Shown: positions 3,486 to 57,778, counted from the stretch's first letter. The stretch is DNA of 64,000 bases from Candidatus Kaelpia imicola (GCA_030765505.1 JAVCCL010000018.1:1064-65063); one strand, 5' to 3'. Made by a program: numbers and translations. Notes: generated from the sequence alone by a model not told the origin.

Positions 3486-5627
3486 ATGTCTAAATTGATA
3501 TTTAAAAATTACGGCGGCAGCTACCAGCTTAGAATTCAAAATGCTCAGGATTTGGAGAAGATTCAGGTTCTTGATGATGCGCATTGGGCAGCTACCAGCA
3601 TTCCAATTGACAGTCTCAATTGCGATTGTGCATTTGCCTCTTATGTAGATACAGATAAAAATGGCCGCATAAGGACTAACGAGCTTAGGGCGGCTTTAGT
3701 ATGGTTATTTCGATTTCTTGCCAATCGCAGTCATCTCTCCGAAGGCACTGAGATACTAAACTTAGAGGATATTGATATTAGTCACCTCCAAGGTCAAAAA
3801 TTAAAAGCTTCAGCAGAGTTAATTTTAACCAATCTTAACTCTCTAAACACACAGGAGATTAGCTTAGCTCAGGTACGGGATGTACAAAGCATTATGGCTA
3901 ACATGGCGAATAATGGTGATGGTATTATTCCTCCTGAAGTCACAACTGACTTTGATCTGTCTCAATTCATCACCTCGGTCATGGAGACTGCAGGTTCTAC
4001 TTTAGATATCTGCGGTAAGCCGGGGATTAACCAAGAGCAGCTTGAGATATTCTTCCAGGAGGCTGAAAGTTATCTTGCATGGCAAAAAAGGGGAGAGATT
4101 CCTAAAGGAGATAAAACTACAGAGATTATGTTTTGGGGAACCGAAACGCCGCAAGCTTATGAGTCGATGGTTAACTTAGAATGGAAGCTTGACCAATATT
4201 TTGCACAGTGTGCAATGGTCAAGTTCGATAAACGGGCGATAGTCCAGATGCAGCTTCGCCAGAAGGAGCTTGAGGAAATCGATTTTAGGGATAAGTCAAT
4301 AATGGAATCCCAGCTTAAAGACGCTCCTCTGGCTTTACCGAATCCAGAAGGTATTCTGGATTTAGAGGCGATGATCAATCCCGAATATGTTGAGTGCCTG
4401 TTTGAATTTAGGGAGAAGGTTCTAAAGCACGCCCTTGGAGAGCCGGTTAAGCAGTTTACTGAAAAACAGTGGAATAAGGTAAAAGATATTTTTATTCCAT
4501 ATAGAATATGGTTAAAAAGTAAGCAGGGTGTGAAAGTAGAAAAGCTGGGTCAAGAGAGACTGCGTACCTATCTTAAGGGACCGTACAGGCGAGAGGCGAG
4601 TGAGTTGATTGCAAAGGATCTGGCTGCGGCTGATGATTTAAACCAGCTACATAATTTGGAAAAACTGATTCTTTATCAGAGATGGTTAATGGAACTGGCG
4701 AACAATTTTGTCAGTTTTACAAATTTTTATTCTCCTCAACATCGTTCCCTCCTTGAAATGGGGAGATTAGTAATTGATGGCAGGGAGATGACTTTTACAA
4801 TGAAAGTTCAGGATAGACTCTCCCATAAAAAAATAGCAAAAAACAGCTTTATCTACCTGCTCTATTTGGAGATTACCGGCCGTCAGGAGAAAGATATTAA
4901 ATTTGAGATTGTGATTGCGGTAACTTCTGGGAGCACAGGCCGATTGCGTATCGGTAAACGCGGTATCTTTTTTACCATAGACGGTATAGAGTGGGATGCT
5001 GAGGTAGTAGATGTTGTGGAAAACCCTATCAGTCTCTGGGAATCAGTGAGAGCACCTTTTAAGCAAATTACTAATCTGGTGAAAAAACAGATAGATAAAT
5101 TCAGTAAATCCCGTCAAGATAAATTGGAAACAGCCATCTCTTCTCCTGGAGGGTCAGGTATAGTACGCGATCTCTTATTAGGCGGAGGTGTGGCTATTGC
5201 AGTTCTTGGTTCGGCATTTGCTTATATTACTAATGTACTTTCTCAGGTCAAACTGGTTCATATTTTGGGTATGTTAGCGGGGGTAGGGGGTATTATCTTA
5301 TTGCCGGGTATGATTATAGGTTTCACCAAGATATGCAAACGGGATATGAGTGTTCTTTTGGAAGCATCGGGTTGGGCGGTAAATGTACAGATGCGGTTAA
5401 ATACTACCTTAGGGCGGCTTTTCACCCATACGCCATGTTTGCCGAAAGGTACATCTAGAGAACGAAGAGATGTAGCGGTACAGTTTGTAAAAAAGCTTGG
5501 TTATACTTCCTTCTACCCAAAAAAGTTGTTTATGATAGTTTTAATTATTACTTTTATTATCCTTTGCTTGATATTGTTTCTGGGTACATATTCTGAACCA
5601 AAGTCATTATTTAACATTTTTAAGTAG
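3486..5627 (+). CDS. Large hypothetical membrane protein with a canonical EF-hand Ca-binding loop and three C-terminal TM helices
   Basis: 713-aa ORF with GGAGG upstream. The loop DTDKNGRIRTNE fits the D-x-[DN]-x-[DN]-G-x-[ILV]-x-x-x-E EF-hand pattern. Hydrophobic stretches occur near aa 540-600 and 685-705. No other family was recognised. Confidence 0.6.
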   Translation: MSKLIFKNYGGSYQLRIQNAQDLEKIQVLDDAHWAATSIPIDSLNCDCAFASYVDTDKNGRIRTNELRAALVWLFRFLANRSHLSEGTEILNLEDIDISHLQGQKLKASAELILTNLNSLNTQEISLAQVRDVQSIMANMANNGDGIIPPEVTTDFDLSQFITSVMETAGSTLDICGKPGINQEQLEIFFQEAESYLAWQKRGEIPKGDKTTEIMFWGTETPQAYESMVNLEWKLDQYFAQCAMVKFDKRAIVQMQLRQKELEEIDFRDKSIMESQLKDAPLALPNPEGILDLEAMINPEYVECLFEFREKVLKHALGEPVKQFTEKQWNKVKDIFIPYRIWLKSKQGVKVEKLGQERLRTYLKGPYRREASELIAKDLAAADDLNQLHNLEKLILYQRWLMELANNFVSFTNFYSPQHRSLLEMGRLVIDGREMTFTMKVQDRLSHKKIAKNSFIYLLYLEITGRQEKDIKFEIVIAVTSGSTGRLRIGKRGIFFTIDGIEWDAEVVDVVENPISLWESVRAPFKQITNLVKKQIDKFSKSRQDKLETAISSPGGSGIVRDLLLGGGVAIAVLGSAFAYITNVLSQVKLVHILGMLAGVGGIILLPGMIIGFTKICKRDMSVLLEASGWAVNVQMRLNTTLGRLFTHTPCLPKGTSRERRDVAVQFVKKLGYTSFYPKKLFMIVLIITFIILCLILFLGTYSEPKSLFNIFK

Positions 5628-31847: not shown

Positions 31848-33536
31848 ATGTTAGAACAGTTAGAAGATATACTTTCAAAGATATCAGTTGCTCATCTTAA
31901 TGTGCTTCTGCTCTTGGGTCTGGCACTATTTGGCGGTACAGTTGGCGGAAGAGTGTTTGAGCGTCTCAAGATTCCCAAAGTCGTAGGCTATATTATAATC
32001 GGCGTTCTTATAGGCAGGACCGGATTTAAGCTTGTTAATCTGGAGGTAATTCACTCTCTTCAGCCATTCAGTTATTTTGCACTTGGATTGATAGGCTTTA
32101 TGGTTGGAGGAGAACTAAAACGTGAGATCTTTCAGAAGTATGGAAAGCAGCTAATCTATATTCTTCTCTGTGAGGGTATAGCTCCTTTTGTACTTGTTAC
32201 TCTCTTTATGGGTTTCACCTGTACGGTTATATTCGGTAATGCTCAGTCTGCTTGGGCATTGGCTATATTGGTCGGGGCTATTGCATCAGCAACTGACCCT
32301 GCTACGACTACGAATGTTTTAAAAGAGTATCGAGCCAGAGGACCGTTAAGTTCAACAGTACTTGGAATAGTTGCTTTAGATGACGGTCTTGCGCTTATGC
32401 TCTTTGTCTTAGCCTCTTCTGTTGCAGGAAGACTGATAGGCCAGGGCAGTTCCTCCCTTCTAAATACTTTTATCTATCCCTTATATGAGATTGGAGGTGC
32501 TATAGTACTCGGCCTGACATCAGGATTTATACTCAATAAGATTATTCGTCACTACTCTGAAGCTGCAAGAATATTGGCATTTGCAATAGGCATGGTTCTT
32601 TTAGTTAGCGGTATAGCCCTTGCTGCCCGTATCGATATGCTTCTTGCGACGATGACGCTTGGAATCATAGTGGTTAACTCTACACCCCGTAAGAGCAAAG
32701 AGGTTTTTAAGCTTGTAGAAGGGTTTACTCCTCCTATATACGTGCTCTTCTTCGTGCTGGTTGGAGCAAGACTGGATCTAAGGAATCTAACTCTGCCTAT
32801 AATAGTGCTTGTAATCATATATCTATTTGGAACTATGGGAGGTAAAATCTTAGGTGCCAGGTTCGGAGCAAAGATATCGCATGCAACAGATAGTGTCAGA
32901 AGATATCTGCCTTTAGCACTATTTCCTCAGGCAGGGGTTGCAATAGGTCTATCTATTCTTGCATCAAACTATTTTCCCGGCGAGATCGGTAATACACTTA
33001 TTATAATAATAACAACGACAACTTTTATAACTCAAATAATAGGTCCTCCTCTTACAAAGTTAGCCTTAAAGAGAGCAGGCGAGGTAGGTTTAAATATAAC
33101 AGAAGAGGATATCATGCTCCAGAGCCATGCCGATGATATCATGGATAAAAACCCTCCTCTTATATATGAGAATATGAGTCTGGTGGATATTCTGGATGTA
33201 TTTAGTAAGAGCAACAATCTTTACTATCCGGTAGTAGATGGAGAGAGAAAACTGAAGGGTATAATTACAATAGATAATATTAAAAGAAGCATGGCAAGTG
33301 TTGATTTAGGTCCACTTGTCTTAGCTTATGATCTCATGGATACAGAAGTTATTCTTACCCATCCTGAGATGGAGATGATAGAGATAAAAGAGACTATCGA
33401 TATGTATAATCTGGACTTCCTTCCGGTTGTAGATGAAAAGAGATATTTGCTTGGTTTTATTGAGAGAAGTGGATTTGAGAGGTTCATATCTACTCGTATG
33501 ATTGAGCTTCAAAAGCAGACTGAGTCTTTGGGTTGA
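31848..33536 (+). CDS. Cation:proton antiporter (CPA/Kef/NhaP-type) with a C-terminal CBS-domain pair
   Basis: About 12 TM helices of a Na_H exchanger fold, plus about 150 aa of C-terminal CBS-like repeats. Confidence 0.78.
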   Translation: MLEQLEDILSKISVAHLNVLLLLGLALFGGTVGGRVFERLKIPKVVGYIIIGVLIGRTGFKLVNLEVIHSLQPFSYFALGLIGFMVGGELKREIFQKYGKQLIYILLCEGIAPFVLVTLFMGFTCTVIFGNAQSAWALAILVGAIASATDPATTTNVLKEYRARGPLSSTVLGIVALDDGLALMLFVLASSVAGRLIGQGSSSLLNTFIYPLYEIGGAIVLGLTSGFILNKIIRHYSEAARILAFAIGMVLLVSGIALAARIDMLLATMTLGIIVVNSTPRKSKEVFKLVEGFTPPIYVLFFVLVGARLDLRNLTLPIIVLVIIYLFGTMGGKILGARFGAKISHATDSVRRYLPLALFPQAGVAIGLSILASNYFPGEIGNTLIIIITTTTFITQIIGPPLTKLALKRAGEVGLNITEEDIMLQSHADDIMDKNPPLIYENMSLVDILDVFSKSNNLYYPVVDGERKLKGIITIDNIKRSMASVDLGPLVLAYDLMDTEVILTHPEMEMIEIKETIDMYNLDFLPVVDEKRYLLGFIERSGFERFISTRMIELQKQTESLG

Positions 33537-33652
33537 TCTTAGATTTTAATTTACATAGATACAGAATAAGAGCAATTTAGTTGGTCAAGCTATTATTGAA
33601 AGAGAAATAATCTCGTTTTGTCTTATAATCAGAGTGGTTTTTATTGAAAGTT

Positions 33653-33698
33653 ATACCATGAAATAAGAAGTTGACAATTTAGTATTTCATGGTATATT
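33653..33698 (+). promoter_or_regulatory. Palindromic operator overlapping a near-consensus sigma70-type promoter; transcript likely leaderless
   Basis: Perfect 13-bp inverted repeat ATACCATGAAATA (33653-33665) / TATTTCATGGTAT (33683-33695) flanks TTGACA (33671-33676). A 16-bp spacer separates it from TATATT (33693-33698). The ATG of the downstream gene is at 33705, so there is no room for an SD sequence. Confidence 0.5.
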
Positions 33699-33704
33699 TA
33701 AAAT

Positions 33705-34856
33705 ATGATAGAGCGAAAAAGATATATTGATTCCATTAAAAAGGTACTTAAGAGAAGTCGGGCGGCTGCTCTTTTAGGTCCTCGTCAATGCGGTAAAACT
33801 ACACTAGCACAGAATCTCATTGACGTCCGTTCCCCTAATTATTTTGATCTTGAAGATCAAAGCAGTCTTATTGCTTTGGTTAACCCCAAAGGTGTACTTG
33901 AGCCGCTGAAAGGTCTGGTTGTTATTGATGAAGTTCAGCAGCGGCCTGAACTTTTCTCCGTTTTACGTGTTCTCTTAGATCGAAAACCTTTGCCTGCAAA
34001 TTTCCTTATTCTCGGAAGCGCATCTCCTGATTTTTTACGGCAATCATCAGAGTCTCTTGCAGGACGTTTGGAATTGATTGAAATGGGCGGGTTTAATCTT
34101 GCTGAGATTGGTGAAAAAAAAGTCTTACGGTTATGGTTAAGAGGGGGGTTTCCGTTATCGTTTTTAGCTAAAAGTGACGCAGATAGTTTTGCTTGGCGAA
34201 AAAGTTTTATTAAAACATTTTTAGAACGTGATTTGCGTGAACAGGGAATTGAACTGCCGTCTGTGACATTATATCGTTTTTGGGCTATGCTTGCCAACAG
34301 TCATGGGCAGATATGGAATGCAGCTCCAATTGCTTCTTCATTAGGTATTTCAGAGCCGACAGTCAGAAAATATTTGGATATTCTTACAGGTGTGTTTATG
34401 GTGCGTCAACTTCAGCCATGGCATGTAAATATTAAAAAGCGTCAAGTTAAATCACCAAAATTATATTTTCGTGATACGGGAATATTGAATTCTTTTTTGG
34501 AATTAAAAACGGAAGCAGAAGTTTTGCGTCACCAAATATGCGGAGCATCTTGGGAAGGTTTTGTAATCGAACAATTGATTTATATTCTTGAGATTGACCA
34601 TCCGTATTTCTGGGCAACACATCAAGGAGCAGAGATTGATCTGGTATTTAACAAAGGCGGGGCTATGTATGGCATTGAGATTAAACGAGCGGATGCTCCG
34701 ACGATAACTCTATCTATGAAGAATGCACTAAAGGATTTAAAACTCAGACGCATTGCTGTTATCTATCCTGGTAAAAAACGATATTCGATTCATAAACAGA
34801 TTGAGGTCGTGCCATTTGATGAAATTTTAGGCGGAATGAAGGGGTTATTGGGATAA
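33705..34856 (+). CDS. AAA+ ATPase of the DUF4143 (AAA_14 + DUF4143) family, copy 1
   Basis: Walker A LLGPRQCGKTTLA and Walker B VVIDEVQ. The characteristic C-terminal DUF4143 region is present. Confidence 0.85.
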   Translation: MIERKRYIDSIKKVLKRSRAAALLGPRQCGKTTLAQNLIDVRSPNYFDLEDQSSLIALVNPKGVLEPLKGLVVIDEVQQRPELFSVLRVLLDRKPLPANFLILGSASPDFLRQSSESLAGRLELIEMGGFNLAEIGEKKVLRLWLRGGFPLSFLAKSDADSFAWRKSFIKTFLERDLREQGIELPSVTLYRFWAMLANSHGQIWNAAPIASSLGISEPTVRKYLDILTGVFMVRQLQPWHVNIKKRQVKSPKLYFRDTGILNSFLELKTEAEVLRHQICGASWEGFVIEQLIYILEIDHPYFWATHQGAEIDLVFNKGGAMYGIEIKRADAPTITLSMKNALKDLKLRRIAVIYPGKKRYSIHKQIEVVPFDEILGGMKGLLG

Positions 34857-35138
34857 TTGTACGGAGTTTAAATTAACAGTGCTATTTTTAAGTGATATTT
34901 GGGTTAAACTCTTTACTATTATACCAATTTGTTGATTATCTTATGGTAAGAGATTGGTATTATACGATATTCTTGCCCCAAGAAAATGGCTCTAGGCTTA
35001 AAGTGTAAATCTCAAAGATAACAGCAATATGACAATATATTCTTTCGTGATTATTGAATAGAGAGATATTAGGGGATTTGATAATATAGAGCATTAGGTA
35101 AAGGTTGAAGCGGCGGTTAAACCTTAAAAGGAGGAGAG

Positions 35139-35384
35139 ATGCTTAGTATCCATACATTGTCTATAGCGGCAGAGGTTATCATTGTTTTGATCGGGTTGGC
35201 AATACTGTTATTCAAGAAGAGGATTATAGGTTTGGGTGTTGCTCTTACTTATGGGATATACGTATTTTATGATATTGCAAAGTTTACTCATTATAGTATC
35301 AATCAGTCTCTTCTCTATGGCCTATTCTTTATAGCAACTCTCTCTATGCTTTTAGTTGTTATAAGAATATATAGAACAGGTTGA
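35139..35384 (+). CDS. Small hypothetical membrane protein (81 aa)
   Basis: Strong RBS AAAGGAGGAGAG upstream and two or three hydrophobic helices. Confidence 0.5.
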   Translation: MLSIHTLSIAAEVIIVLIGLAILLFKKRIIGLGVALTYGIYVFYDIAKFTHYSINQSLLYGLFFIATLSMLLVVIRIYRTG

Positions 35385-35605
35385 AAGTAATTTATCTAAC
35401 ATAGATGAGAATATTAGTTGTTTTATTAGTTTTTTTTATTCTATCAGGTTCTATTTTCATTCTTAATCAAAGAGAGAATTACAATATAGTTGAGTTGACC
35501 GACTATACCTTAAGTTATGATCTTTTATCTGAAGAGAACCTTAAACCTTAGTATAGTTTTCCCAATCTTTACAGGGAGTATTCCCGGATTATATCAGAGG
35601 ATGAA

Positions 35606-36394
35606 TTGAAGAGTATAATTACCCAATCAGAAGTATTCCTAGAGCAGGAATATTTTGACGATAAGAGTACCTCTTTAAAAGATATTATAATAGATGGTTT
35701 AAACATAAGATTCCTTCTTAAGGACGTAGACTCTAGAGAGTTAAGAGTAACTACGATATCAGATAAAGAGAGGGATGGTTATCATGAAAGAGAGCTGCTA
35801 TTTGAAGATCAGAATGTAGGTACTTTTTTTGTTACATTGCTTATTCCTCATGAAGAGAGAGATAGTTATTTTGCTATTTTAGGCCTTCCCGGCCATGGTA
35901 CATGGAATCAAGATTTTATAGAAAACTACCATGCTGGTGATCTAGCAAGAGCCGGCTTTATAGTTATAATACCATTTATGCGGGCTATGATGGATTGGGA
36001 GTCCGATCATGCAGTAAGTAAACATCTGTTATGTAATGGGTTTACCCTGATGGGTCTTAGAGTCTATGAATCCCTGCTTACCCTTAAATATCTTAAGTAT
36101 CTTGAAGAGGTTGATAGTAATAAGATTGGTATTTTAGCTCATTCAGGAGGTGCTGCTATTGCAAACCTTCTTATCTATGTAACTGATGATTTTAAAGCCC
36201 TCTTAAGAGATTATAATAGCAACTATCTCGATATTATCCTTGAAAAGCTTCACTGTGAGACTATACCCAGCATCTTTCCTTTCTATATGCTTATCAACTC
36301 TAAAGAATCTACCCCTATAGCTATTCTAGAAACACCATATGGATTTAAAGTTAATAGAGAGGATATAATAGTATTTTTTAATCAACATCTTTGA
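35606..36394 (+). CDS. Alpha/beta hydrolase (dienelactone hydrolase/esterase-like)
   Basis: GxSxG elbow AHSGGA. TTG start at 35606 preceded by AGAGGA, with no in-frame ATG upstream. Confidence 0.55.
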   Translation: MKSIITQSEVFLEQEYFDDKSTSLKDIIIDGLNIRFLLKDVDSRELRVTTISDKERDGYHERELLFEDQNVGTFFVTLLIPHEERDSYFAILGLPGHGTWNQDFIENYHAGDLARAGFIVIIPFMRAMMDWESDHAVSKHLLCNGFTLMGLRVYESLLTLKYLKYLEEVDSNKIGILAHSGGAAIANLLIYVTDDFKALLRDYNSNYLDIILEKLHCETIPSIFPFYMLINSKESTPIAILETPYGFKVNREDIIVFFNQHL

Positions 36395-44737: not shown

Positions 44738-44785
44738 ATACCATGAAATATTAACTTGCAATAGTTAAATTTCATGGTGTATTAA
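44738..44785 (+). promoter_or_regulatory. Second copy of the palindromic operator/promoter (ACCATGAAAT ... ATTTCATGGT around TTGCAA)
   Basis: ATACCATGAAATA (44738-44750) and ATTTCATGGT (44769-44778) flank a TTGCAA -35-like hexamer. It has the same architecture as 33653-33698 and lies directly upstream of the paralogous ATPase gene. Confidence 0.45.
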
Positions 44786-44789
44786 TAAT

Positions 44790-45941
44790 ATGATTGAACG
44801 GAAGAAGGTTATAGATCGTATTACCGGAGCTTTAAACAGGGGGCGGATAGTCTCATTGCTGGGACCTCGCCAGTGTGGAAAAACAACTCTAGCTTGATAT
44901 TTTGCACAACCAGGATCATCTCTGTACTTTGATCTTGAGGATCCTGTTGACAGTGCAAAGATGATAGAGCCTAAAAATGTTTTAGAGAACCTTAAAGGAA
45001 CGGTTGTTATAGACGAGATTCAGCATCAGCCGGAGTTGTTTCCTCTTTTGCGGGTTTTGGCGGATAGAGCTCCATTGCCTGCTAAGTTTCTTATTCTCGG
45101 CAGTGCATCGCCCGATCTGGTCAAAGGCTCTTCTGAATCATTAGCCGGGAGAGTAGAGCGCATTCAGATAGGAGGGTTCTCTTTAGATGAGATTGGTGAG
45201 GAAAACTTTGAATCTCTTTGGCTGCGCGGAAGGCTGCCCCGGCCGTTTCTTGCTGATACAGATGATGAAAGTTTTATTTGGCTGAAAGAGTATACGCAGA
45301 GTTTTGTAGAGAGAGACCTTCCATTGCATGGGCTCTCTTTACCGCCTATGACGCTGTTGCGGTTTTGGACTATGCTGGCGCATTATCATGGGCAAGTTTT
45401 CAATGCCAGCGAAATAGCTCGTTCTTTAGGGATAAGCGTGATGACAGTTAAACGTTATCTGGATGTATTGACAGGTGTTTTTATGATTAGGCAGGTACAG
45501 CCATGGTTTGGAAATATTAAAAAGCGCCAAGTAAAATCTCCAAAGATTTATTTTTATGATACGGGTATTTTGCATTCTCTTCTAGGAATAGGGACGAAGA
45601 ATGATCTATCGGCTCACCCAAAGTACGGTGCTTCTTGGGAGGGTTTTGTCATGGAAGAGATTATTAATTCAGTTAAGCTTCATGAGGTTTATTTTTGGAG
45701 GACACATCAAGGGGCGGAGATTGATTTAATATTTAACAAGGGCGGGCGAATGTATGGTGTTGAGATCAAACGTGCTGATGCACCGGTTATGACACCATCA
45801 ATGCGTATTGCTCTAGAAGATTTAAAACTCAAGCGCATTGCCGTCATCTATCCCGGGAATCGGCACTATTCTATTCACAGGCAGATTGATGTTGTGCCGT
45901 TTAATGAGATTTTAGGCGGGATGGAGGGGCTGTTTAGGTAA
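44790..45941 (+). pseudogene. AAA+ ATPase DUF4143 family, copy 2, with an in-frame TGA at 44895-44897
   Basis: MIERKKVIDRITGALNRGRIVSLLGPRQCGKTTLA*YFAQPGSSLYFDLED...: the Walker A segment and the rest of the protein (track ORF 44961-45941) share one frame. They are broken only by TGA where family members usually carry Arg (CGA). Confidence 0.7.
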
Positions 45942-51195: not shown

Positions 51196-51221
51196 ACATT
51201 CGGTCTAATATTATTGTCAAC
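51178..51221 (+). repeat. 44-bp composite direct repeat, copy A (ATTGTAAAC-TTATTGTAAAC-13 nt-TTATTGTCAAC)
   Basis: Matches copy B at 52254-52297 in architecture, differing at one A/C and in the spacer. Overlaps the stop codons of the convergent OsmC-like and HTH-GHKL genes. Confidence 0.7.
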
Positions 51222-52236
51222 CAATATGTTTTATCATTGCATCAATAGCTTTATTGGTATTTATGGTCTCTATTTCAATACTTGGATAGTTATTTTTAAA
51301 AACTCTAAATATCTCATCTGCAAAACCTTGTCCTATGCCTCTAACTCCTTTAAAGTTAAGTCTTATCTCTTTAAACTTTTTTAAATTGAATAATAATCTT
51401 TTAGCCTCAGAGCGGGAGAGATAGGAGTCTTTCTCCTTAGTGAAAAGATTTATAGTTACAGCGGTTTTAGAAAATTTATAATCGTATTTTTCGTTACTAT
51501 ACTCATCAAAAATAGTTTTTAATCTCTTTTTGGAGTTTTTGCTGATTGTGAAATTGACTGAAGTTCCTCTTTTGTATTTTATCTTTTGTGTAAATAGATC
51601 ATTTTTTATGTTATCAAAGGTAACCTCTATGTTATGGCTCTTTATGAGAAGCTTATTAGATGCTTTTGATGTAAAAAACAATCCTTCTCCGGAATGGTAT
51701 TTTTTTGCCGTAGTAGTTTTGCCTTTGATCAATTCTTGTAAAGCTTCGTACTCATCCTCTAAGCCGAATTTTTTTTTAATGTTTTCAAATATTCCTATCC
51801 CTTGGTCGTTTATTACAAAGTTTATATTATAGTTATCAACTTTTAATTTAACTTTGGATCTTTTTGATTTAGAATGGTCGATTGCATTATTAAGTATTTC
51901 TGTAAAGGCATAGGATAGGATATCAAATATATTTTTTCTCAGTAGATGTTTTAAATCATATTGAACATTGATTTTATTAAAAACTCTATCTTCTTTTAAA
52001 TTATGAAGTAAACAATCTCTACTTAGCTCTATCGTTAAGTTGTCTGTTTTTTTATCTTTTAGTGCATACTTTACGCCCCTAGTGGTGCCGATTTTTTTTA
52101 TTACCCCTTCAGCGATTAGTCGTTTGATATGTTTATGTATTCCTTGTCTAGTTAACCCCGTAGCTTTAGCTATCTCTTCTATTGTAATATATTCTTGTTG
52201 TCCCAACCTGCTTAAAATTCTATTTTTAATATTCAC
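51217..52236 (-). CDS. HTH - GHKL (histidine-kinase-like) ATPase - DUF4325 (STAS-like) protein
   Basis: Winged HTH EEIAKATGLTRQGIHKHIKRL. GHKL N-box NNAIDHS, G1 DQGIGI and G2 GEGLF. C-terminal ...LNFKGVRGIGQGFADEIFRVF resembles DUF4325. Preferred start is GTG at 52236 (MNIKNRILSRL...). The track's TTG at 52296 would translate the repeat array. The gene is very AT-rich. Confidence 0.65.
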   Translation of the reverse strand: MNIKNRILSRLGQQEYITIEEIAKATGLTRQGIHKHIKRLIAEGVIKKIGTTRGVKYALKDKKTDNLTIELSRDCLLHNLKEDRVFNKINVQYDLKHLLRKNIFDILSYAFTEILNNAIDHSKSKRSKVKLKVDNYNINFVINDQGIGIFENIKKKFGLEDEYEALQELIKGKTTTAKKYHSGEGLFFTSKASNKLLIKSHNIEVTFDNIKNDLFTQKIKYKRGTSVNFTISKNSKKRLKTIFDEYSNEKYDYKFSKTAVTINLFTKEKDSYLSRSEAKRLLFNLKKFKEIRLNFKGVRGIGQGFADEIFRVFKNNYPSIEIETINTNKAIDAMIKHIG

Positions 52237-52243
52237 GGTAATA

Positions 52244-52272
52244 ATTTTAACATATTGTAAACTTATTGTCAA
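52244..52272 (-). promoter_or_regulatory. Near-consensus promoter inside direct-repeat copy B (TTGACA-17-TAAAAT on the minus strand)
   Basis: Minus-strand TTGACA is the reverse complement of TGTCAA at 52267-52272. TAAAAT is the reverse complement of 52244-52249, 7 nt before the GTG start at 52236. Confidence 0.45.
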
Positions 52273-52297
52273 CCTTGCATTAAATATTATTGTCAAC
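52254..52297 (+). repeat. 44-bp composite direct repeat, copy B (ATTGTAAAC-TTATTGTCAAC-13 nt-TTATTGTCAAC)
   Basis: See copy A. Lies in the 5' region of the minus-strand HTH-GHKL gene. Confidence 0.7.
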
Positions 52298-53566: not shown

Positions 53567-56008
53567 ATGAGAAAAAAAACAAGCTTACAATATAGACCAG
53601 AAGCAAAGAGACTTCTGGTTTTTCTTTTAGCAGCTCTCTTACTAACTTCCTTAAGCCCTGCATTATATGCTGCCGGTAGAGACTCTTCCATTGAAGAGGA
53701 GAGAGCAAAGGCTCAGAAGTTAATCCAGCAGGAAGAGAAGGAAGATAGGCGTGAGAAGCAGGCCAGAATAAACAGCCTTTATAAAGAAGCACTCTCTTTC
53801 TATTACGAAGATAATCTAAGAGCAGCTCAGGAGACATTTGAATTGATTCTCCTTATAGCTCCGGATGAGAAAAAAGCAAATAGTTTTATAGAGAGTAAGA
53901 TTCCTGCAAGATCTGAAAAGTTAGTAGAGTTAAAACAGAGAGAGGCAGAGAGAGAAGCAAAGAAGAGGGAAGAGGAGCTTAAGCGTTTAAGAGCCAGGGC
54001 AGAGAGAGAGGCTAAGAGACAGATAGAAGAGCAGGAGCGTGACCAGAAAAAGGCAGAGCTTGAGAGAGAACGTGCCCAGCGTGAAGCAGAGCGTATAAGA
54101 GAGAGACAGAGCATAGAGGAAGAGAAGCAGGCTAAGACAGCAGAGAGAGAGAGGAAGCGTGCTGATAAGGAAGCAGAATTAGAGAGAAAACGCGCAGAGA
54201 AAGAAGCTAAAAGAGCAAGGCAGGATAGAGTAGGTGAGATTTGTGAAGAAGCACTATCTTATTACAAAGAAGGTAATATAGACCAGTCTATAAATTCATT
54301 CCAGCAGGTTCTTAAATTAGATCCGGATAATAAGAGAGCAGAGAGCTACTTAAATAATAAGATTCCTGCTAAGAGAGAGCGCCTTAATGAGATTGCAGAG
54401 CGCGAAAGAGAGAGTCAGAGAGTAGAGAAAGAGAAAGAACTATCTAAATTAAAAGAGAGAGCCCAAAAAGAGGCTCAAGCTCAAGAGAGAGAGCTGGCCA
54501 AAGAGAAGAAGCTTGCTGAAGCTATAGCCGGGAAGCAGGCCAAGAGAATAGAGAGAGAGAAGAAGCTTGCTGAGGCTGAAGCCGAGAAGCATGCCAAGAG
54601 AATAGAAAAAGAGAAGAGGTTGGCTGGAAAAGAGGCTAAGAAGCAGGCTGAGATAGCAGAGAAAAAGGCTCAAAAAGAAACAGCGAAGTTAGAGAGAGAG
54701 AAGAAGCGCGCTGAAAAAGAGGCTCAAAAACAGGCTAAGAAATTAGAGAGAGAGAAGAGGTTGGCTGGAAAAGAGGCTAAGAAGCAGGCTGAGATAGCAG
54801 AGAGAGAGGCTCAAAAGGAATCTAAAAAGTTAGAGATAGAGCAAAAAAGCGCCAGTATAGATACTAAGAGAGAGACAGCAAGGTTAGAAAAAGAGAAGAG
54901 GTTGGCTGAAAAAGAAGCTAAGAAGCAGGCTAAGATAGCAGAGAAAGAAGCCAGAAAACAGGCAAAAATAGCTAAGAAAGAAGCTAAGAAACTTGCAAAA
55001 GCAGAAGGAGTAGAGGAGGAAGTTAAAGAGGTAAGAGAGAAAAAAGAGAAGGCTCCTCGAGTAATCAGTGAAGATAAGCTTAAGAGAAAAGCAGAGGTAG
55101 AAGAGAAGCTTAGAAAGAAAAGAGAGGCCAGGGAAGCAAAGCTTGCCAAGAAAAAAGGGAAGCTGGAAGATAAGAAAGCTGAGAAAATTAAGACAAGAGA
55201 AGATAAAATAAGAGTTGAAGAAGAAGCCCGTATTGCAGCTACGCAGAGCGATTTCATTACTATAAACAGAGTTGTTACTACGCCTGGCTTGGTTCAGGAT
55301 GCAGATGCTTTTGTTGAGGCTAAAAGAGAAGAAGAGTCTATCGCTCTATATAACTACGCGTTAGATGTAACAAAAGATAAATCAATCAGGAAAGAGATTG
55401 CGCTTAAGAAGAGAGCTGCTTTAAAGGCGATAAAGAAGAAAGATAAGCAGAAGGCAAGAGACGAGTATAAGCAGGAAGTGAAGAAAAAGCATGAGACTCA
55501 TCGTGCCAAGATAGAGGCTAAGAGAGAGCAGCGTACTCAAAAGAAAGAGAATAGTAGAAAGATAAACGACCTCTATAGAGAAGCGCTTTCATTATATTAT
55601 GATAATAAGTTTGATGAAGCAGAGGCTAAGTTTAATGAGATCTTAGGATTCTCACCTGATGAAAAAAGAGCCAGGAAGTTTATAGACGTTAAGATTCCTG
55701 CAAGAAAAGAGCAGCTTGAGAATTTAGAAAATAAAACTAAATTACGTAAAGATAAAATAGAAGAGAAGAGCCGTGCTGATAGAGAGGCTAAGAAGCAGGC
55801 TGAGATAGCAGAGAGAGAGGCTCAAAAAGAAACAGCGAAGTTAGAGAGAGAGAAGAAGCGTGCTGAAAAAGAGGCTCAAAAACAGGCTAAGAAATTAGAG
55901 AAAGAAAAGAGGTTAGCTGATAAAGAAGCTGAGAAGGCTCGCATTAAAGCTGAAAGAGAAGAGAAGAAGCAGGAAAAAGAAGAGGAAATTCAGGGAGATA
56001 TAAAATAG
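53567..56008 (+). CDS. Secreted Lys/Glu-rich coiled-coil protein with three conserved TPR-like modules
   Basis: Signal peptide MRKKTSLQYRPEAKRLLVFLLAALLLTSLSPALYA. Three copies of an approximately 55-aa module, each ending in KIPA[RK]xExL (aa ~60-120, ~225-285, ~635-695). Long charged low-complexity helical runs (AKKQAEIAE..., EKKRAEKEAQKQAKKLE...) lie between them. Stop TAG at 56006-56008 directly abuts the tpsB ATG at 56009. Confidence 0.7.
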   Translation: MRKKTSLQYRPEAKRLLVFLLAALLLTSLSPALYAAGRDSSIEEERAKAQKLIQQEEKEDRREKQARINSLYKEALSFYYEDNLRAAQETFELILLIAPDEKKANSFIESKIPARSEKLVELKQREAEREAKKREEELKRLRARAEREAKRQIEEQERDQKKAELERERAQREAERIRERQSIEEEKQAKTAERERKRADKEAELERKRAEKEAKRARQDRVGEICEEALSYYKEGNIDQSINSFQQVLKLDPDNKRAESYLNNKIPAKRERLNEIAERERESQRVEKEKELSKLKERAQKEAQAQERELAKEKKLAEAIAGKQAKRIEREKKLAEAEAEKHAKRIEKEKRLAGKEAKKQAEIAEKKAQKETAKLEREKKRAEKEAQKQAKKLEREKRLAGKEAKKQAEIAEREAQKESKKLEIEQKSASIDTKRETARLEKEKRLAEKEAKKQAKIAEKEARKQAKIAKKEAKKLAKAEGVEEEVKEVREKKEKAPRVISEDKLKRKAEVEEKLRKKREAREAKLAKKKGKLEDKKAEKIKTREDKIRVEEEARIAATQSDFITINRVVTTPGLVQDADAFVEAKREEESIALYNYALDVTKDKSIRKEIALKKRAALKAIKKKDKQKARDEYKQEVKKKHETHRAKIEAKREQRTQKKENSRKINDLYREALSLYYDNKFDEAEAKFNEILGFSPDEKRARKFIDVKIPARKEQLENLENKTKLRKDKIEEKSRADREAKKQAEIAEREAQKETAKLEREKKRAEKEAQKQAKKLEKEKRLADKEAEKARIKAEREEKKQEKEEEIQGDIK
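54632..54767 (+). repeat. Intragenic near-identical DNA repeat, copy 1 (~136 bp)
   Basis: GAGGCTAAGAAGCAGGCTGAGATAGCAGAG...GAAATTAGAG...GAGGTTGGCTG recurs at 55784-55919 with a handful of mismatches. Partial further copies lie at about 54526-54610 and 54775-54815. Confidence 0.7.
55784..55919 (+). repeat. Intragenic near-identical DNA repeat, copy 2 (~136 bp)
   Basis: See 54632-54767. Confidence 0.7.
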
Positions 56009-57778
56009 ATGAAGTTTATTAACTTGCTTATTGCCTATGCTCTTATATTGAGTGTCCCGGTCTATGCGGATGAAGCAGCTAGTGCGGGGGATATGCAGCA
56101 GATTCTTGATAGATTGGACCAGCTTCAGGGTAAGGTAACTCAACTTGAGAGTAAGGTCAAAGAGCAGGATGAAGTGATTAAGAGGCAGAATCAGGCTCTG
56201 GATAAATTAGGTGAGATGGTACCGGAGGTTAAGAAAGCTATGGCACCGCCTGAGCCTAAGGTTGTTGTCAGTAATTTTGTCTTAAGCGGTGTAAATCTCT
56301 TTGATCCGATAGACTTTGAGCCTGTACTTAAGAAGTACAGGAGTAAAGAGTTAGGAATAAGCGACTTAAAGACTATATCCGATGAGTTAACAGCGTTCTA
56401 CCGTTCTAAAGGTTATATTACATCTCTTGCCTATGCTCCGACTCAGGAGATTGAGAATGAGACTGTTGAGTTTAGGGTAATAGAGGGTAGAGTAGGTAAT
56501 ATTGAATTGGAAGGCGGAGAGTACTTTAAGAAAGAGACAATGGCCAAGAGAATTACGATTGAAGAGGGTCAGGTCCTTAATTATGAAAGACTTCAGCGTG
56601 ATGTAAGAAAATTAAATAAGCAGCCTGACAGAACTATGAAGGCAATCCTTCTTCCGGGTCAAGATAAAGGAACAACAGATATACTCATCAAGATGGAAGA
56701 AGAGAGCGATCCAAAACATTTCTATTTCGACTGTAGTAATACTGGAACTGAAGAGACAAAGACAGCCCGTTTTGGTCTAGGTTTTGCTCATAATAATCTT
56801 CTTGGTTATGATGATATCTTATCCATTAAAGCTAGAGTCGGTGACTGGGATATCTACTCAATAAGCGCGGACTACAATGTTCCAATTAATAAGTATAATA
56901 CCCGTATCGGTGCCTATGGAATATTTTCTCATACGGATATAGGCGGTCAGTTTACAGTTATCGAGCCTGAGGGTTCAGCCACAGCATTAGGTGCATATAT
57001 TACTCACCCTCTATTTGATAAAGATTATTTTGATCCAGTGGCTATCAATCTATCAAGTGATGTTATAGCAGGACTTGATTTAATAGATGTTAAAAACATG
57101 CTGTTAGGTGAAGAGACTTCTCACGATGTCTTACGCGTTGCTAAATTAGGTATTAGCTTTGATGAGAGAGATGCATTGGGAAGAACGTTCTTTAATAATG
57201 AGTTTAGAGTTGGAATCGATGGGCTTGGTTCGATGGATAGCAATGATGAATCCTCATCCATTATAGATGCAGGAAGTGAGTTCATGAAATATACCGGTAC
57301 TCTAACTCGTATAACACGTCTTCCATTCAGCATGATGTTTATAAATAACTTAAAGTTCCAGCATACAAATAATCCGCTTGTTACAAGCGAACAGCTGAGT
57401 CTGGGCGGAGCTGATACAATAAGAGGTTATCCTCAGAATGATTACTTAGCAGACTTTGGTTATGTATGTACGTTGGAGCTGCGTACACCCGCATTTATAT
57501 TCCCACGTGAAATTAAAGTTCCTTACGATGATAAAAAGACTCCAATTATGGATGCAGTTCAGTTTGTATACTTTGTTGACTTTGGTAAAGGACATCGTAA
57601 GAATCCGCGTGTAGGTGAAACAAAAGATCAGTTTATGATTGGAACCGGTTTCGGTTTCAGGTTTGATCTATATGAACATCTGCGTGCCAGACTGGACTTT
57701 GGATTCCCTGCGGGTAATGAAGAACCTTCAGACGGATCCTCCGGTACAGTCCACGTAGGCGTACAATACGAATTCTAA
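56009..57778 (+). CDS. Two-partner-secretion outer-membrane transporter (TpsB; ShlB/FhaC/HecB family)
   Basis: Signal peptide, an approximately 60-aa coiled-coil N-region, a POTRA-like segment (ITSLAYAPTQEIENETVEFRVIEGRVGNIELEGGEYFKKETMAKRI), and a C-terminal beta-barrel ending in an aromatic residue (...VGVQYEF). Confidence 0.82.
   Translation: MKFINLLIAYALILSVPVYADEAASAGDMQQILDRLDQLQGKVTQLESKVKEQDEVIKRQNQALDKLGEMVPEVKKAMAPPEPKVVVSNFVLSGVNLFDPIDFEPVLKKYRSKELGISDLKTISDELTAFYRSKGYITSLAYAPTQEIENETVEFRVIEGRVGNIELEGGEYFKKETMAKRITIEEGQVLNYERLQRDVRKLNKQPDRTMKAILLPGQDKGTTDILIKMEEESDPKHFYFDCSNTGTEETKTARFGLGFAHNNLLGYDDILSIKARVGDWDIYSISADYNVPINKYNTRIGAYGIFSHTDIGGQFTVIEPEGSATALGAYITHPLFDKDYFDPVAINLSSDVIAGLDLIDVKNMLLGEETSHDVLRVAKLGISFDERDALGRTFFNNEFRVGIDGLGSMDSNDESSSIIDAGSEFMKYTGTLTRITRLPFSMMFINNLKFQHTNNPLVTSEQLSLGGADTIRGYPQNDYLADFGYVCTLELRTPAFIFPREIKVPYDDKKTPIMDAVQFVYFVDFGKGHRKNPRVGETKDQFMIGTGFGFRFDLYEHLRARLDFGFPAGNEEPSDGSSGTVHVGVQYEF

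Follow-up and report, generated by a model that had tools for sequence, protein, structure and literature searches.

The 64,000-nt stretch of DNA from Candidatus Kaelpia imicola that was analyzed here (GCA_030765505.1 JAVCCL010000018.1:1064-65063; in the following, the window) carries two paralogous genes, copy 1 and copy 2, for proteins that combine an AAA_14 ATPase, a winged helix-turn-helix (HTH) and a PD-(D/E)XK-like nuclease domain (DUF4143). In front of both genes a palindrome is wrapped around the promoter, and the same element could be identified upstream of homologous genes in many phyla. The variable inner part of the palindrome covaries with residues in the predicted HTH of the adjacent protein, which provides strong statistical evidence, from sequence comparison, that each palindrome is recognised by the ATPase-nuclease encoded just behind it. 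It is probable that the protein binds this palindrome in its own promoter and represses its own gene.

A conserved 39-bp palindrome at the promoter of AAA_14/DUF4143 genes

The gene of copy 1 (33705..34856, + strand, 383 aa) is preceded by a 13-bp inverted repeat without mismatch, ATACCATGAAATA at 33653-33665 and TATTTCATGGTAT at 33683-33695. A promoter scan identified TTGACA at 33671-33676 and, after a spacer of 16 nt, TATATT at 33693-33698 with TG in front of it; together, the two hexamers agree with the consensus at 11 of 12 bases. The start codon (ATG at 33705) follows the -10 at a distance of 6 nt, too short for a Shine-Dalgarno sequence to fit in between. In copy 2, ACCATGAAAT at 44740-44749 and ATTTCATGGT at 44769-44778 are separated by a gap of 19 nt that contains TTGCAA (44756-44761), and the ATG is found at 44790. 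An earlier note on this DNA had described the repeat of copy 1 around TTGACA-16-TATATT with the ATG 6 nt further on, and the same core around TTGCAA in copy 2; both descriptions were confirmed, the second with identical half-sites and the same 19-nt gap. What this note had missed is that the 19-nt "spacer" of copy 1 is itself largely palindromic, resulting in 22-nt arms with 86% complementarity. Both copies contain ACCATGAAAT-N19-ATTTCATGGT, at 33655-33693 and 44740-44778, in each case 11 nt 5' of the ATG. When the 10-N19-10 pattern was searched with up to 3 mismatches, these were the only two sites in the window (expected, 0.01). The half-sites are 100% identical between the copies, and the coding DNA is roughly two-thirds identical where ungapped. 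An ATG within the right arm was considered as an alternative start but discarded, because in copy 1 it lies in another reading frame and the homology of the protein N terminus begins at 33705.

All parts of the element lie on the + strand. In copy 1 the left outer arm ACCATGAAAT (palindrome positions 1-10, 33655..33664), a 10-mer found exactly in at least 109 N19 sites of other genomes, is followed by the left inner arm AAGAAGT (positions 11-17, 33665..33671), which is variable between loci and is proposed as the specificity part on account of its symmetry and covariation. The -35 TTGACA (positions 17-22, 33671..33676) is located at the dyad centre, and similar hexamers occur at position 17 on the gene strand of other loci. 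It is followed by the right inner arm ATTTAGT (positions 23-29, 33677..33683) and the right outer arm ATTTCATGGT (positions 30-39, 33684..33693), in which TGgT gives both the TG of an extended -10 and the first T of the -10 TATATT (33693..33698). The palindrome of copy 2 (44740..44778) consists of ACCATGAAAT, ATTAACT, TGCAA, TAGTTAA and ATTTCATGGT, and continues into a degenerate -10, TGTATT (44778..44783).

The exact pattern ACCATGAAAT-N15-23-ATTTCATGGT was scanned in one genome per species (185,579 species, 596 Gb). At least 120 sites were listed, at least 109 of them with a gap of exactly 19 nt; the other spacings together yielded 11 sites, which is near chance, the expectation of ~0.5 sites per spacing being plain arithmetic (596e9 / 4^20) with no shuffle control. 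Among the matches listed, the N19 sites span about 15 phyla, with Chloroflexota, Pseudomonadota, Omnitrophota, Planctomycetota, Myxococcota, Acidobacteriota, Cyanobacteria, Bacteroidota, Verrucomicrobiota, Desulfobacterota, Elusimicrobiota and Fibrobacterota among the groups represented. Twenty exact non-coding bases at a fixed spacing over so many phyla are unusual in themselves. At 62 of the 109 listed N19 sites the start codon of a homologue was found 9-42 nt (mode 11) 3' of the palindrome; the orientation was the same in all 62 pairs, and these homologues are 40-85% identical to copy 1. About a dozen more listed sites have a homologue farther off, a second palindrome or a decayed remnant nearby. 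Loci were also collected independently of the motif, by fetching 80 metagenome loci by protein profile only, 72 of which had a usable start and upstream sequence. A recognisable N19 variant ~11 nt from the ATG was observed in about 55-60 of these 72 motif-blind homologues (43-71% identity).

Homologues were further found on 122 plasmid records, 46 of them conjugative, and a plasmid variant of the element, TCCTTGCAAw-N19-wTTGCAAGGA, abuts the ATG in the three records checked (Rhizobium, Mesorhizobium and Paracoccus). A phage origin was considered and rejected: in 2.9 million viral contigs the exact pattern matched only once, inside an open reading frame (ORF) and with a non-palindromic spacer, and this match was treated as chance. 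The element is thus portable and belongs to one clade of AAA_14+DUF4143 genes. For annotation, the motif marks the true start codons of these ATPase genes and also the relics of lost copies.

Comparison of the loci showed that the full element comprises 39 bp, two arms of 17 bp each and a centre of 5 nt. In each arm the outer 10 bp are conserved and the inner 7 bp vary yet stay symmetric in most loci, as in TCCGCCA..TGGCGGA, CTCGGTG..CGCCGAG and TCGAAAG..CTTTCGA. Positions 6-8 (G, A, A) are almost invariant across loci, positions 12-16 carry several base-pair types each, and the centre (positions 18-22) is asymmetric. In 54 motif-blind sequences 81.9% of the arm cells were complementary, compared to 66.2% in shuffles, and double compensatory changes amounted to 179 versus 73 in shuffles. 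None of 500 shuffles reached the observed value, and a shifted register abolished the signal.

The promoter signals recur in the same register. A TTGACA-like hexamer at position 17 with at least 5 of 6 matches was found on the gene strand in 13/62 and on the other strand in 6/62 of the listed loci, and in 15/46 versus 4/46 loci of the metagenome set. An extended -10 (TGgTAnnnT) is present at the gene-side edge of the palindrome in 40/62 of the listed homologous loci, compared to 8/62 at the mirror edge. The distance from the arm to the ATG is 11-14 nt in 41/62 listed and 33/46 metagenome loci, and the -10 is located 6-9 nt before the start codon in most loci. This geometry of -35, extended -10 and ATG predicts that the mRNA should be leaderless or nearly so, without a Shine-Dalgarno sequence. 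The scan of the species genomes thus turned up the exact N19 pattern at no fewer than 109 sites and tied it to ATPase homologues. The claim of a conserved cis-element wrapped around the promoter stands, since its geometry recurs in dozens of homologous loci. The same note had raised the case of a longer repeat family unrelated to these genes; a large family does exist, and it is the upstream element of the ATPase genes.

Some loci deviate in their layout. In the Burkholderiales-type loci L011, L016, L028, L045, L092 and L120, the arm-to-ATG distance is 20-21 nt, and an extra segment resembling a half-site, ATGGTAGCCT or ACCATGAG, is located 10-20 nt 3' of the right arm. This segment resembles ATGGTAnnnT or ACCATGA and may represent a displaced -10 or a third half-site. 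Locus L024 (2157-2273) contains two complete palindromes 78 nt apart that face outward, one to the ATPase gene and one to a 200-aa ORF, and in L074 (573-700) a second, degenerate copy lies between an exact palindrome and the gene.

Covariation of the inner arms with a predicted helix-turn-helix

Covariation between protein and DNA was analyzed in the 95 loci for which both the palindrome and a full-length protein were available. Raw mutual information between protein columns and inner-arm bases was tried and discarded, because it was confounded by column entropy, with high-entropy C-terminal columns scoring high. Instead, for each DNA position, similarity was regressed on residue identity in each protein column while controlling for overall identity. 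All ~225 variable protein columns served as the null, and replication was assessed in two disjoint sets, from genomes and from metagenomes.

Residue 217 was linked to position 12/28 with a z score of 7.6 in all loci and ranked first in both the genome set (z 5.6) and the metagenome set (z 5.9). Likewise, residue 218 was linked to position 14/26 (z 7.9 in all loci), again ranking first in both sets (z 4.6 and 7.8, respectively), and to position 15/25 (z 8.5 in all loci), where it ranked second in the genome set (z 5.0) and first in the metagenome set (z 8.3). The link of residue 222 to position 16/24 is tentative, as it was seen only in the combined set (z 5.2); in the genome set this column fell outside the variability filter and in the metagenome set it ranked fifth with a z score of 2.5.

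The correspondence can be followed in the individual sequences. Proteins with D-T or D-K at residues 217-218 go with the inner arm nTCGGnn, those with E-S with TCCnnCA and those with V-M with ATTAACT. E-P is accompanied by TCGAAnn, and the Omnitrophota form AAGAAGT keeps the GAA at positions 13-15. The two window copies have different combinations: E217-P218-K222 with AAGAAGT in copy 1 and V217-M218-R222 with ATTAACT in copy 2. Since they differ at the specificity positions, the two paralogues are probably insulated from each other and not co-regulated.

In copy 1, codons 203-230 (34311..34394, + strand) encode the predicted HTH, for which the AlphaFold2 (AF2) model contains helices at 203-212 and 217-230. 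The proposed base-reading residues E217, P218 and K222 (34353-34370, + strand), which covary with DNA positions 12, 14, 15 and 16, occupy the first, second and sixth places of helix 217-230, which comes after helix 203-212 in a classic HTH arrangement. In classical HTH proteins, it is the face of the second helix formed by positions 1, 2 and 6 that enters the major groove. The centres of the two inner arms are 12 bp apart, a distance suited to a symmetric dimer.

Proposed self-repression and alternative explanations

The anatomy of the element, its distribution, its symmetry and its covariation with the protein are established. On this basis, the following mechanism is proposed. A sigma-70-type promoter would be located inside the 39-bp palindrome, with the end of the right arm supplying the TG and the first T of the extended -10, and the first transcribed base would be the A of the ATG or one adjacent to it, so that the mRNA would be leaderless. 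The AAA+ ATPase/winged-HTH/PD-(D/E)XK protein would bind the palindrome as a symmetric dimer or a higher oligomer. Residues 217, 218 and probably 222 of its recognition helix would read inner-arm positions 12-16, and an invariant part of the protein would read the invariant outer arms; to assign this role to the basic wing N-x-x-KRQVKSPK is a guess. Bound in this way, the protein would cover both promoter hexamers (-35 and -10) as well as the spacer between them, so that negative autoregulation of a potentially harmful nuclease would be expected. With diverged reading residues and inner arms, paralogues within one genome could be insulated from each other. An extended -10, a leaderless mRNA and a self-encoded regulator would together make the element independent of host-specific factors, in agreement with its spread across phyla and on conjugative plasmids. 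The system may therefore be an example of a mobile, potentially toxic gene with host-independent control.

Several points weigh against this proposal. Binding, the sign of regulation and the transcription start site are what we infer from the features described above. A good -35 is present in only a minority of the loci. Phylogeny was controlled approximately in the covariation analysis, through overall identity and the internal column null and with no tree model. The AF2 model is moderate (mean pLDDT 74.3, the predicted local distance difference test score), because the sequences in alignment A3 are only 64-86% identical, and its putative wing (233-251) has a pLDDT below 50. Perfect 17-bp arms would also allow a cruciform or a hairpin. 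Finally, for roughly 25-33 of the 109 listed exact palindromes no ATPase gene could be detected within 2.5 kb, and a pure cis-operator model can accommodate such orphans only if they are left over from lost genes or act in trans.

The orphan palindromes (e.g., L047 4009-4047, L079 4905-4943, L100 2744-2782 and L114 5374-5412) are mostly intergenic; many follow a stop codon by a few nt or separate two convergent genes, and 25 of the 33 orphans listed lack TAnnnT on both sides. Remnants of the gene were found next to several palindromes. A few N-terminal ATPase codons are kept in L013, L064 and L089; L009 looks similar, but there the gene probably just runs past the end of the retrieved sequence. 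In L035 (1953-2185), L039 (3682-3909, directly fused) and L054 (7595-7898) only the last ~55-60 ATPase codons adjoin the palindrome, and in L115 (3095-3854) the start codons and the C-terminal ~215 codons are kept. These four loci represent repeated cases of internal deletion in which one endpoint coincides with the palindrome or is close to it. Such gene remnants suggest that many orphans are relics of gene loss. Orphans may also be maintained as trans sites, and the palindrome itself may provoke deletions or serve as a nuclease substrate.

A different role for the same protein-DNA pair was also considered, in which the palindrome is more than an operator and acts as the cognate DNA partner of a widespread sensor, the ATPase-nuclease. 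The protein would be parked on this 39-bp site, specific in sequence and structure and possibly extruded as a cruciform, within its own promoter as well as on orphan copies at other places in the genome. If infection or DNA damage triggered ATP-dependent release or activation, repression of the gene would be lifted and the nuclease set free at the same time. This scenario is unlikely in our estimation. If it were true, residues 217/218/222 versus positions 12-16 would constitute a simple, re-programmable and lineage-specific code of protein-DNA recognition, found in at least 15 phyla.

The compensatory changes that keep the 17-bp arms complementary would also be expected if the palindrome acted as a nucleic-acid hairpin, either an RNA stem-loop that terminates or insulates upstream read-through or a DNA cruciform extruded by supercoiling and recognised, for example, by the PD-(D/E)XK domain. 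Indeed, single-strand folding gave -10.3 and -12.1 kcal/mol (z -5.5 and -7.3), and the position of orphans just past stop codons or between convergent genes would suit such a structure. The pattern of mismatches is unlike that of RNA stems: G-T was not favoured over A-C (31 vs 23 in the motif-blind set, and 28 vs 21), and 141 of 195 mismatches in the motif-blind set were of the transversion type. G-U enrichment and strand asymmetry were both tested and neither was found, and the RNA-hairpin reading was therefore rejected; the predicted transcription start 3' of the palindrome also speaks against it. A terminator scan at both copies found no T-run and no terminator-like site, and nothing beyond noise at E>6, from microRNA and intron families, came up when 33400-33900 was compared to Rfam (E<=10). 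Moreover, a pure structure model predicts no covariation with two specific HTH residues. Taken together, a hairpin or cruciform as the main function is considered quite unlikely; recognition of a cruciform by the same protein could coexist with an operator role.

Selfish mobility was weighed as well, with the palindrome as a recombination, cleavage or target site that the ATPase-nuclease cuts or marks for its own spread or for deletions, regulation being secondary. The intact PD-(D/E)XK signature, the plasmid records (46 of 122 conjugative), the frequent orphan palindromes, the relics with only C-terminal codons (L035, L039, L054) or an internal loss (L115) and the tandem palindromes in L024 and L074 are all in line with this. 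However, each gene is accompanied by a single palindrome, with none at the 3' end, and no flanking direct repeats were noticed, though no dedicated search across loci was run. The lone match in the viral contigs is probably chance, and the insertion of palindrome and ATPase gene between nadA and fur was vertically inherited between two species (see below). The tight, oriented overlap with -35, -10 and ATG suits a promoter-operator and not a transposon end, and we regard this explanation as improbable, although the palindrome may have such a role in addition.

The earlier note had postulated a dedicated, shared HTH regulator for the two genes, a claim that was not borne out. A separate host-encoded protein that co-regulates both paralogues could account for the identical outer arms of the two window copies, and a second HTH protein is encoded within the window (51217-52296). 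However, a host factor of identical specificity in all ~15 phyla that carry the exact element without any other conserved neighbour is implausible. The bases at the variable inner positions follow residues of the neighbouring ATPase, with 217-12 and 218-14 in first place among ~225 columns in each of the two sets, and the paralogues differ at exactly these specificity positions, which leaves this explanation with hardly any credibility. The distribution across phyla without a conserved neighbour, combined with the covariation, argues that the regulator is most likely the ATPase-nuclease itself.

Probable decay of copy 2, protein family and genomic context

Copy 2 (44790..45941, + strand) belongs to the same family and is otherwise full length, but contains a single in-frame TGA at codon 36 (44895-44897), just past the Walker A motif. 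Furthermore, the second position of its -10 is a G in place of the critical A. Both defects were missed in the earlier note. In another species (locus L098) an orthologue was found in the same gene order, mnmA-nadA-[palindrome+ATPase]-fur-ABC, with NadA 77% identical. Over residues 58-382 (325 residues) copy 2 and this orthologue share 87% identity, and TATATT is preserved as the -10 of the L098 gene. Copy 2 is probably a decaying gene, a recent pseudogene judging by these comparisons. The shared order in two species indicates that the nadA-fur insertion can pass vertically for some time. An apparent gap of 166 nt between palindrome and gene in L098 was discarded as an assembly or masking artefact, as it is created by an N-run with the same flank ATGATTGAACGGAAGAAGATTG on both sides (4970-5060).

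Both window proteins could be assigned to known families. AAA_14 (PF13173) matched with E values of 3.6e-22 for copy 1 and 1e-11 for the truncated ORF of copy 2, and DUF4143 (PF13635) with 1.3e-43 and 2e-48 for the two copies. The AAA_14 domain has Walker A and Walker B motifs, and GPRQxGKTTLA and the D75-E76 pair are invariant in an alignment of diverse homologues (A2). The PD-(D/E)XK signature is intact (E284, E310-x-D312, E325-x-K327), with E284, E310, D312 and E325 invariant and K327 nearly so in the alignment. DUF4143 is counted among the PD-(D/E)XK families (PMC3424549). The invariant basic segment N-x-x-KRQVKSPK (residues 242-252) falls mostly in the low-confidence modelled stretch 233-251. 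With PADLOC, copy 1 matched the candidate defence system PDC-S01 (PDLC04790, E 4e-84), and six further PDC-S01 models matched as well.

A sequence search of the Protein Data Bank (PDB) with the window protein found no relative. The best whole-chain structural match of the AF2 model is the Walker-type ATPase PABY2304 of Pyrococcus abyssi (PDB 2qen), from which the window protein differs clearly, with 15% identity and low template modelling (TM) scores of 0.42/0.45; otherwise, Foldseek returned only generic AAA+ matches from the PDB. To our knowledge, no operator is known for PABY2304/2qen.

The window proteins are thus members of AAA_14 + DUF4143, COG1373 and PADLOC PDC-S01 (PMC12988326, PMC3424549). 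PDC-S01 is reported to be the fourth most common candidate defence system in prokaryotes, with ~39,000 instances in one survey (PMC12988326). Of eight candidates assayed in E. coli B, four gave protection against T4, T5 or T7, and the lone PDC-S01 representative was not one of them (bioRxiv 10.1101/2024.09.26.614923). The literature searched for PDC-S01, DUF4143, COG1373 and AAA_14 reports prevalence and domain content, and no operator, promoter, regulation or DNA ligand was found in it; searches with the half-site strings returned unrelated papers only. For this large clade, the analysis adds a proposed DNA ligand, a predicted promoter and transcription start site, and a hypothesis of residue-to-base read-out. 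Culturable carriers of plasmid-borne members are Rhizobium leguminosarum WSM1325, Mesorhizobium japonicum MAFF 303099 and Paracoccus denitrificans.

Judged by its sequence features, the circuit would be of a known kind, here on a very abundant and uncharacterised family. The nearest parallels are the C-protein/C-box circuits of type II restriction-modification (R-M) systems, which, like the circuit proposed here, provide portable, self-contained autoregulation of a mobile nuclease gene through an operator interleaved with the promoter. In the case of C.PvuII, the palindromic operator is interleaved with the -35 and -10, and the main transcript is leaderless (PMC2175313). In contrast to the system described here, C proteins are small, separate HTH proteins that activate and then repress, and their operator consists of two adjacent short palindromes. 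In the window proteins the HTH lies inside a 383-aa ATPase-nuclease, the operator would be one 39-bp palindrome with composite arms, only repression is proposed and there is no sequence relationship.

Another parallel is formed by AbiEi, the antitoxin of the AbiE abortive-infection system, and Rv2827c, where a winged-HTH protein of a defence or toxin module exerts negative autoregulation through long inverted repeats that overlap its own promoter (PMC7319586, PMC3985639), as proposed here. AbiEi protomers each bind one 23-bp inverted repeat, the repeats being 3 bp apart in the promoter of AbiEi itself (PMC7319586). AbiEi differs in its family and operator sequence, and it is a dedicated antitoxin-repressor beside a separate toxin, whereas here the regulator and the presumed effector would be one AAA+ polypeptide. 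BrxR/CapW, which contain a WYL domain (PMC9122601), and RptR (PMC12255303) resemble the proposed system as HTH proteins that act on inverted repeats in phage-defence promoters and keep expression low until needed. Unlike the ATPase-nuclease, they are encoded by separate genes, often for multi-gene systems. The window proteins have no WYL or equivalent sensor domain, and the ATPase may take over this sensor role.

Housekeeping genes surround both window copies. Copy 1 has a Na+/H+ exchanger gene and trehalose-phosphatase and GH65 genes as neighbours, and copy 2 sits between nadA and fur. Location in or beside known defence systems was what the PDC candidates were called on. Among the neighbouring ORFs tested against Pfam or NCBIfam, no defence system was found at either copy, a result that applies to these two loci and not to the family in general, and neither R-M genes nor a small HTH gene were among them. 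On the 3' side of copy 1 (34857-36394), an 81-aa ORF (35139-35384) and a 262-aa ORF (35606-36394) were found, neither with a Pfam match.

Further along the window, 51217-52296 (- strand), in a stretch with a GC content of 0.33, encodes a 359-aa protein with an N-terminal winged HTH, a GHKL (HATPase_c) domain and a C-terminal STAS-like DUF4325. This protein is another HTH-ATPase fusion, with no role assigned. An extreme purine skew was observed at 54400-55300 within the ORF 53567-56008 (AT skew 0.49 and GC skew 0.40 over 54001-56000). It is caused by repeats rich in Lys, Glu and Ala in the 813-aa TPR protein that this ORF encodes. The gene of this TPR protein is located directly 5' of that for a ShlB/FhaC-type two-partner-secretion transporter (56009-57778). 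The strand bias of the window is strong, with nearly all long ORFs up to ~58 kb on the + strand, and the GC skew is positive across the window. Combining the one-sided ORFs with the positive GC skew, the window is probably located on one replichore.

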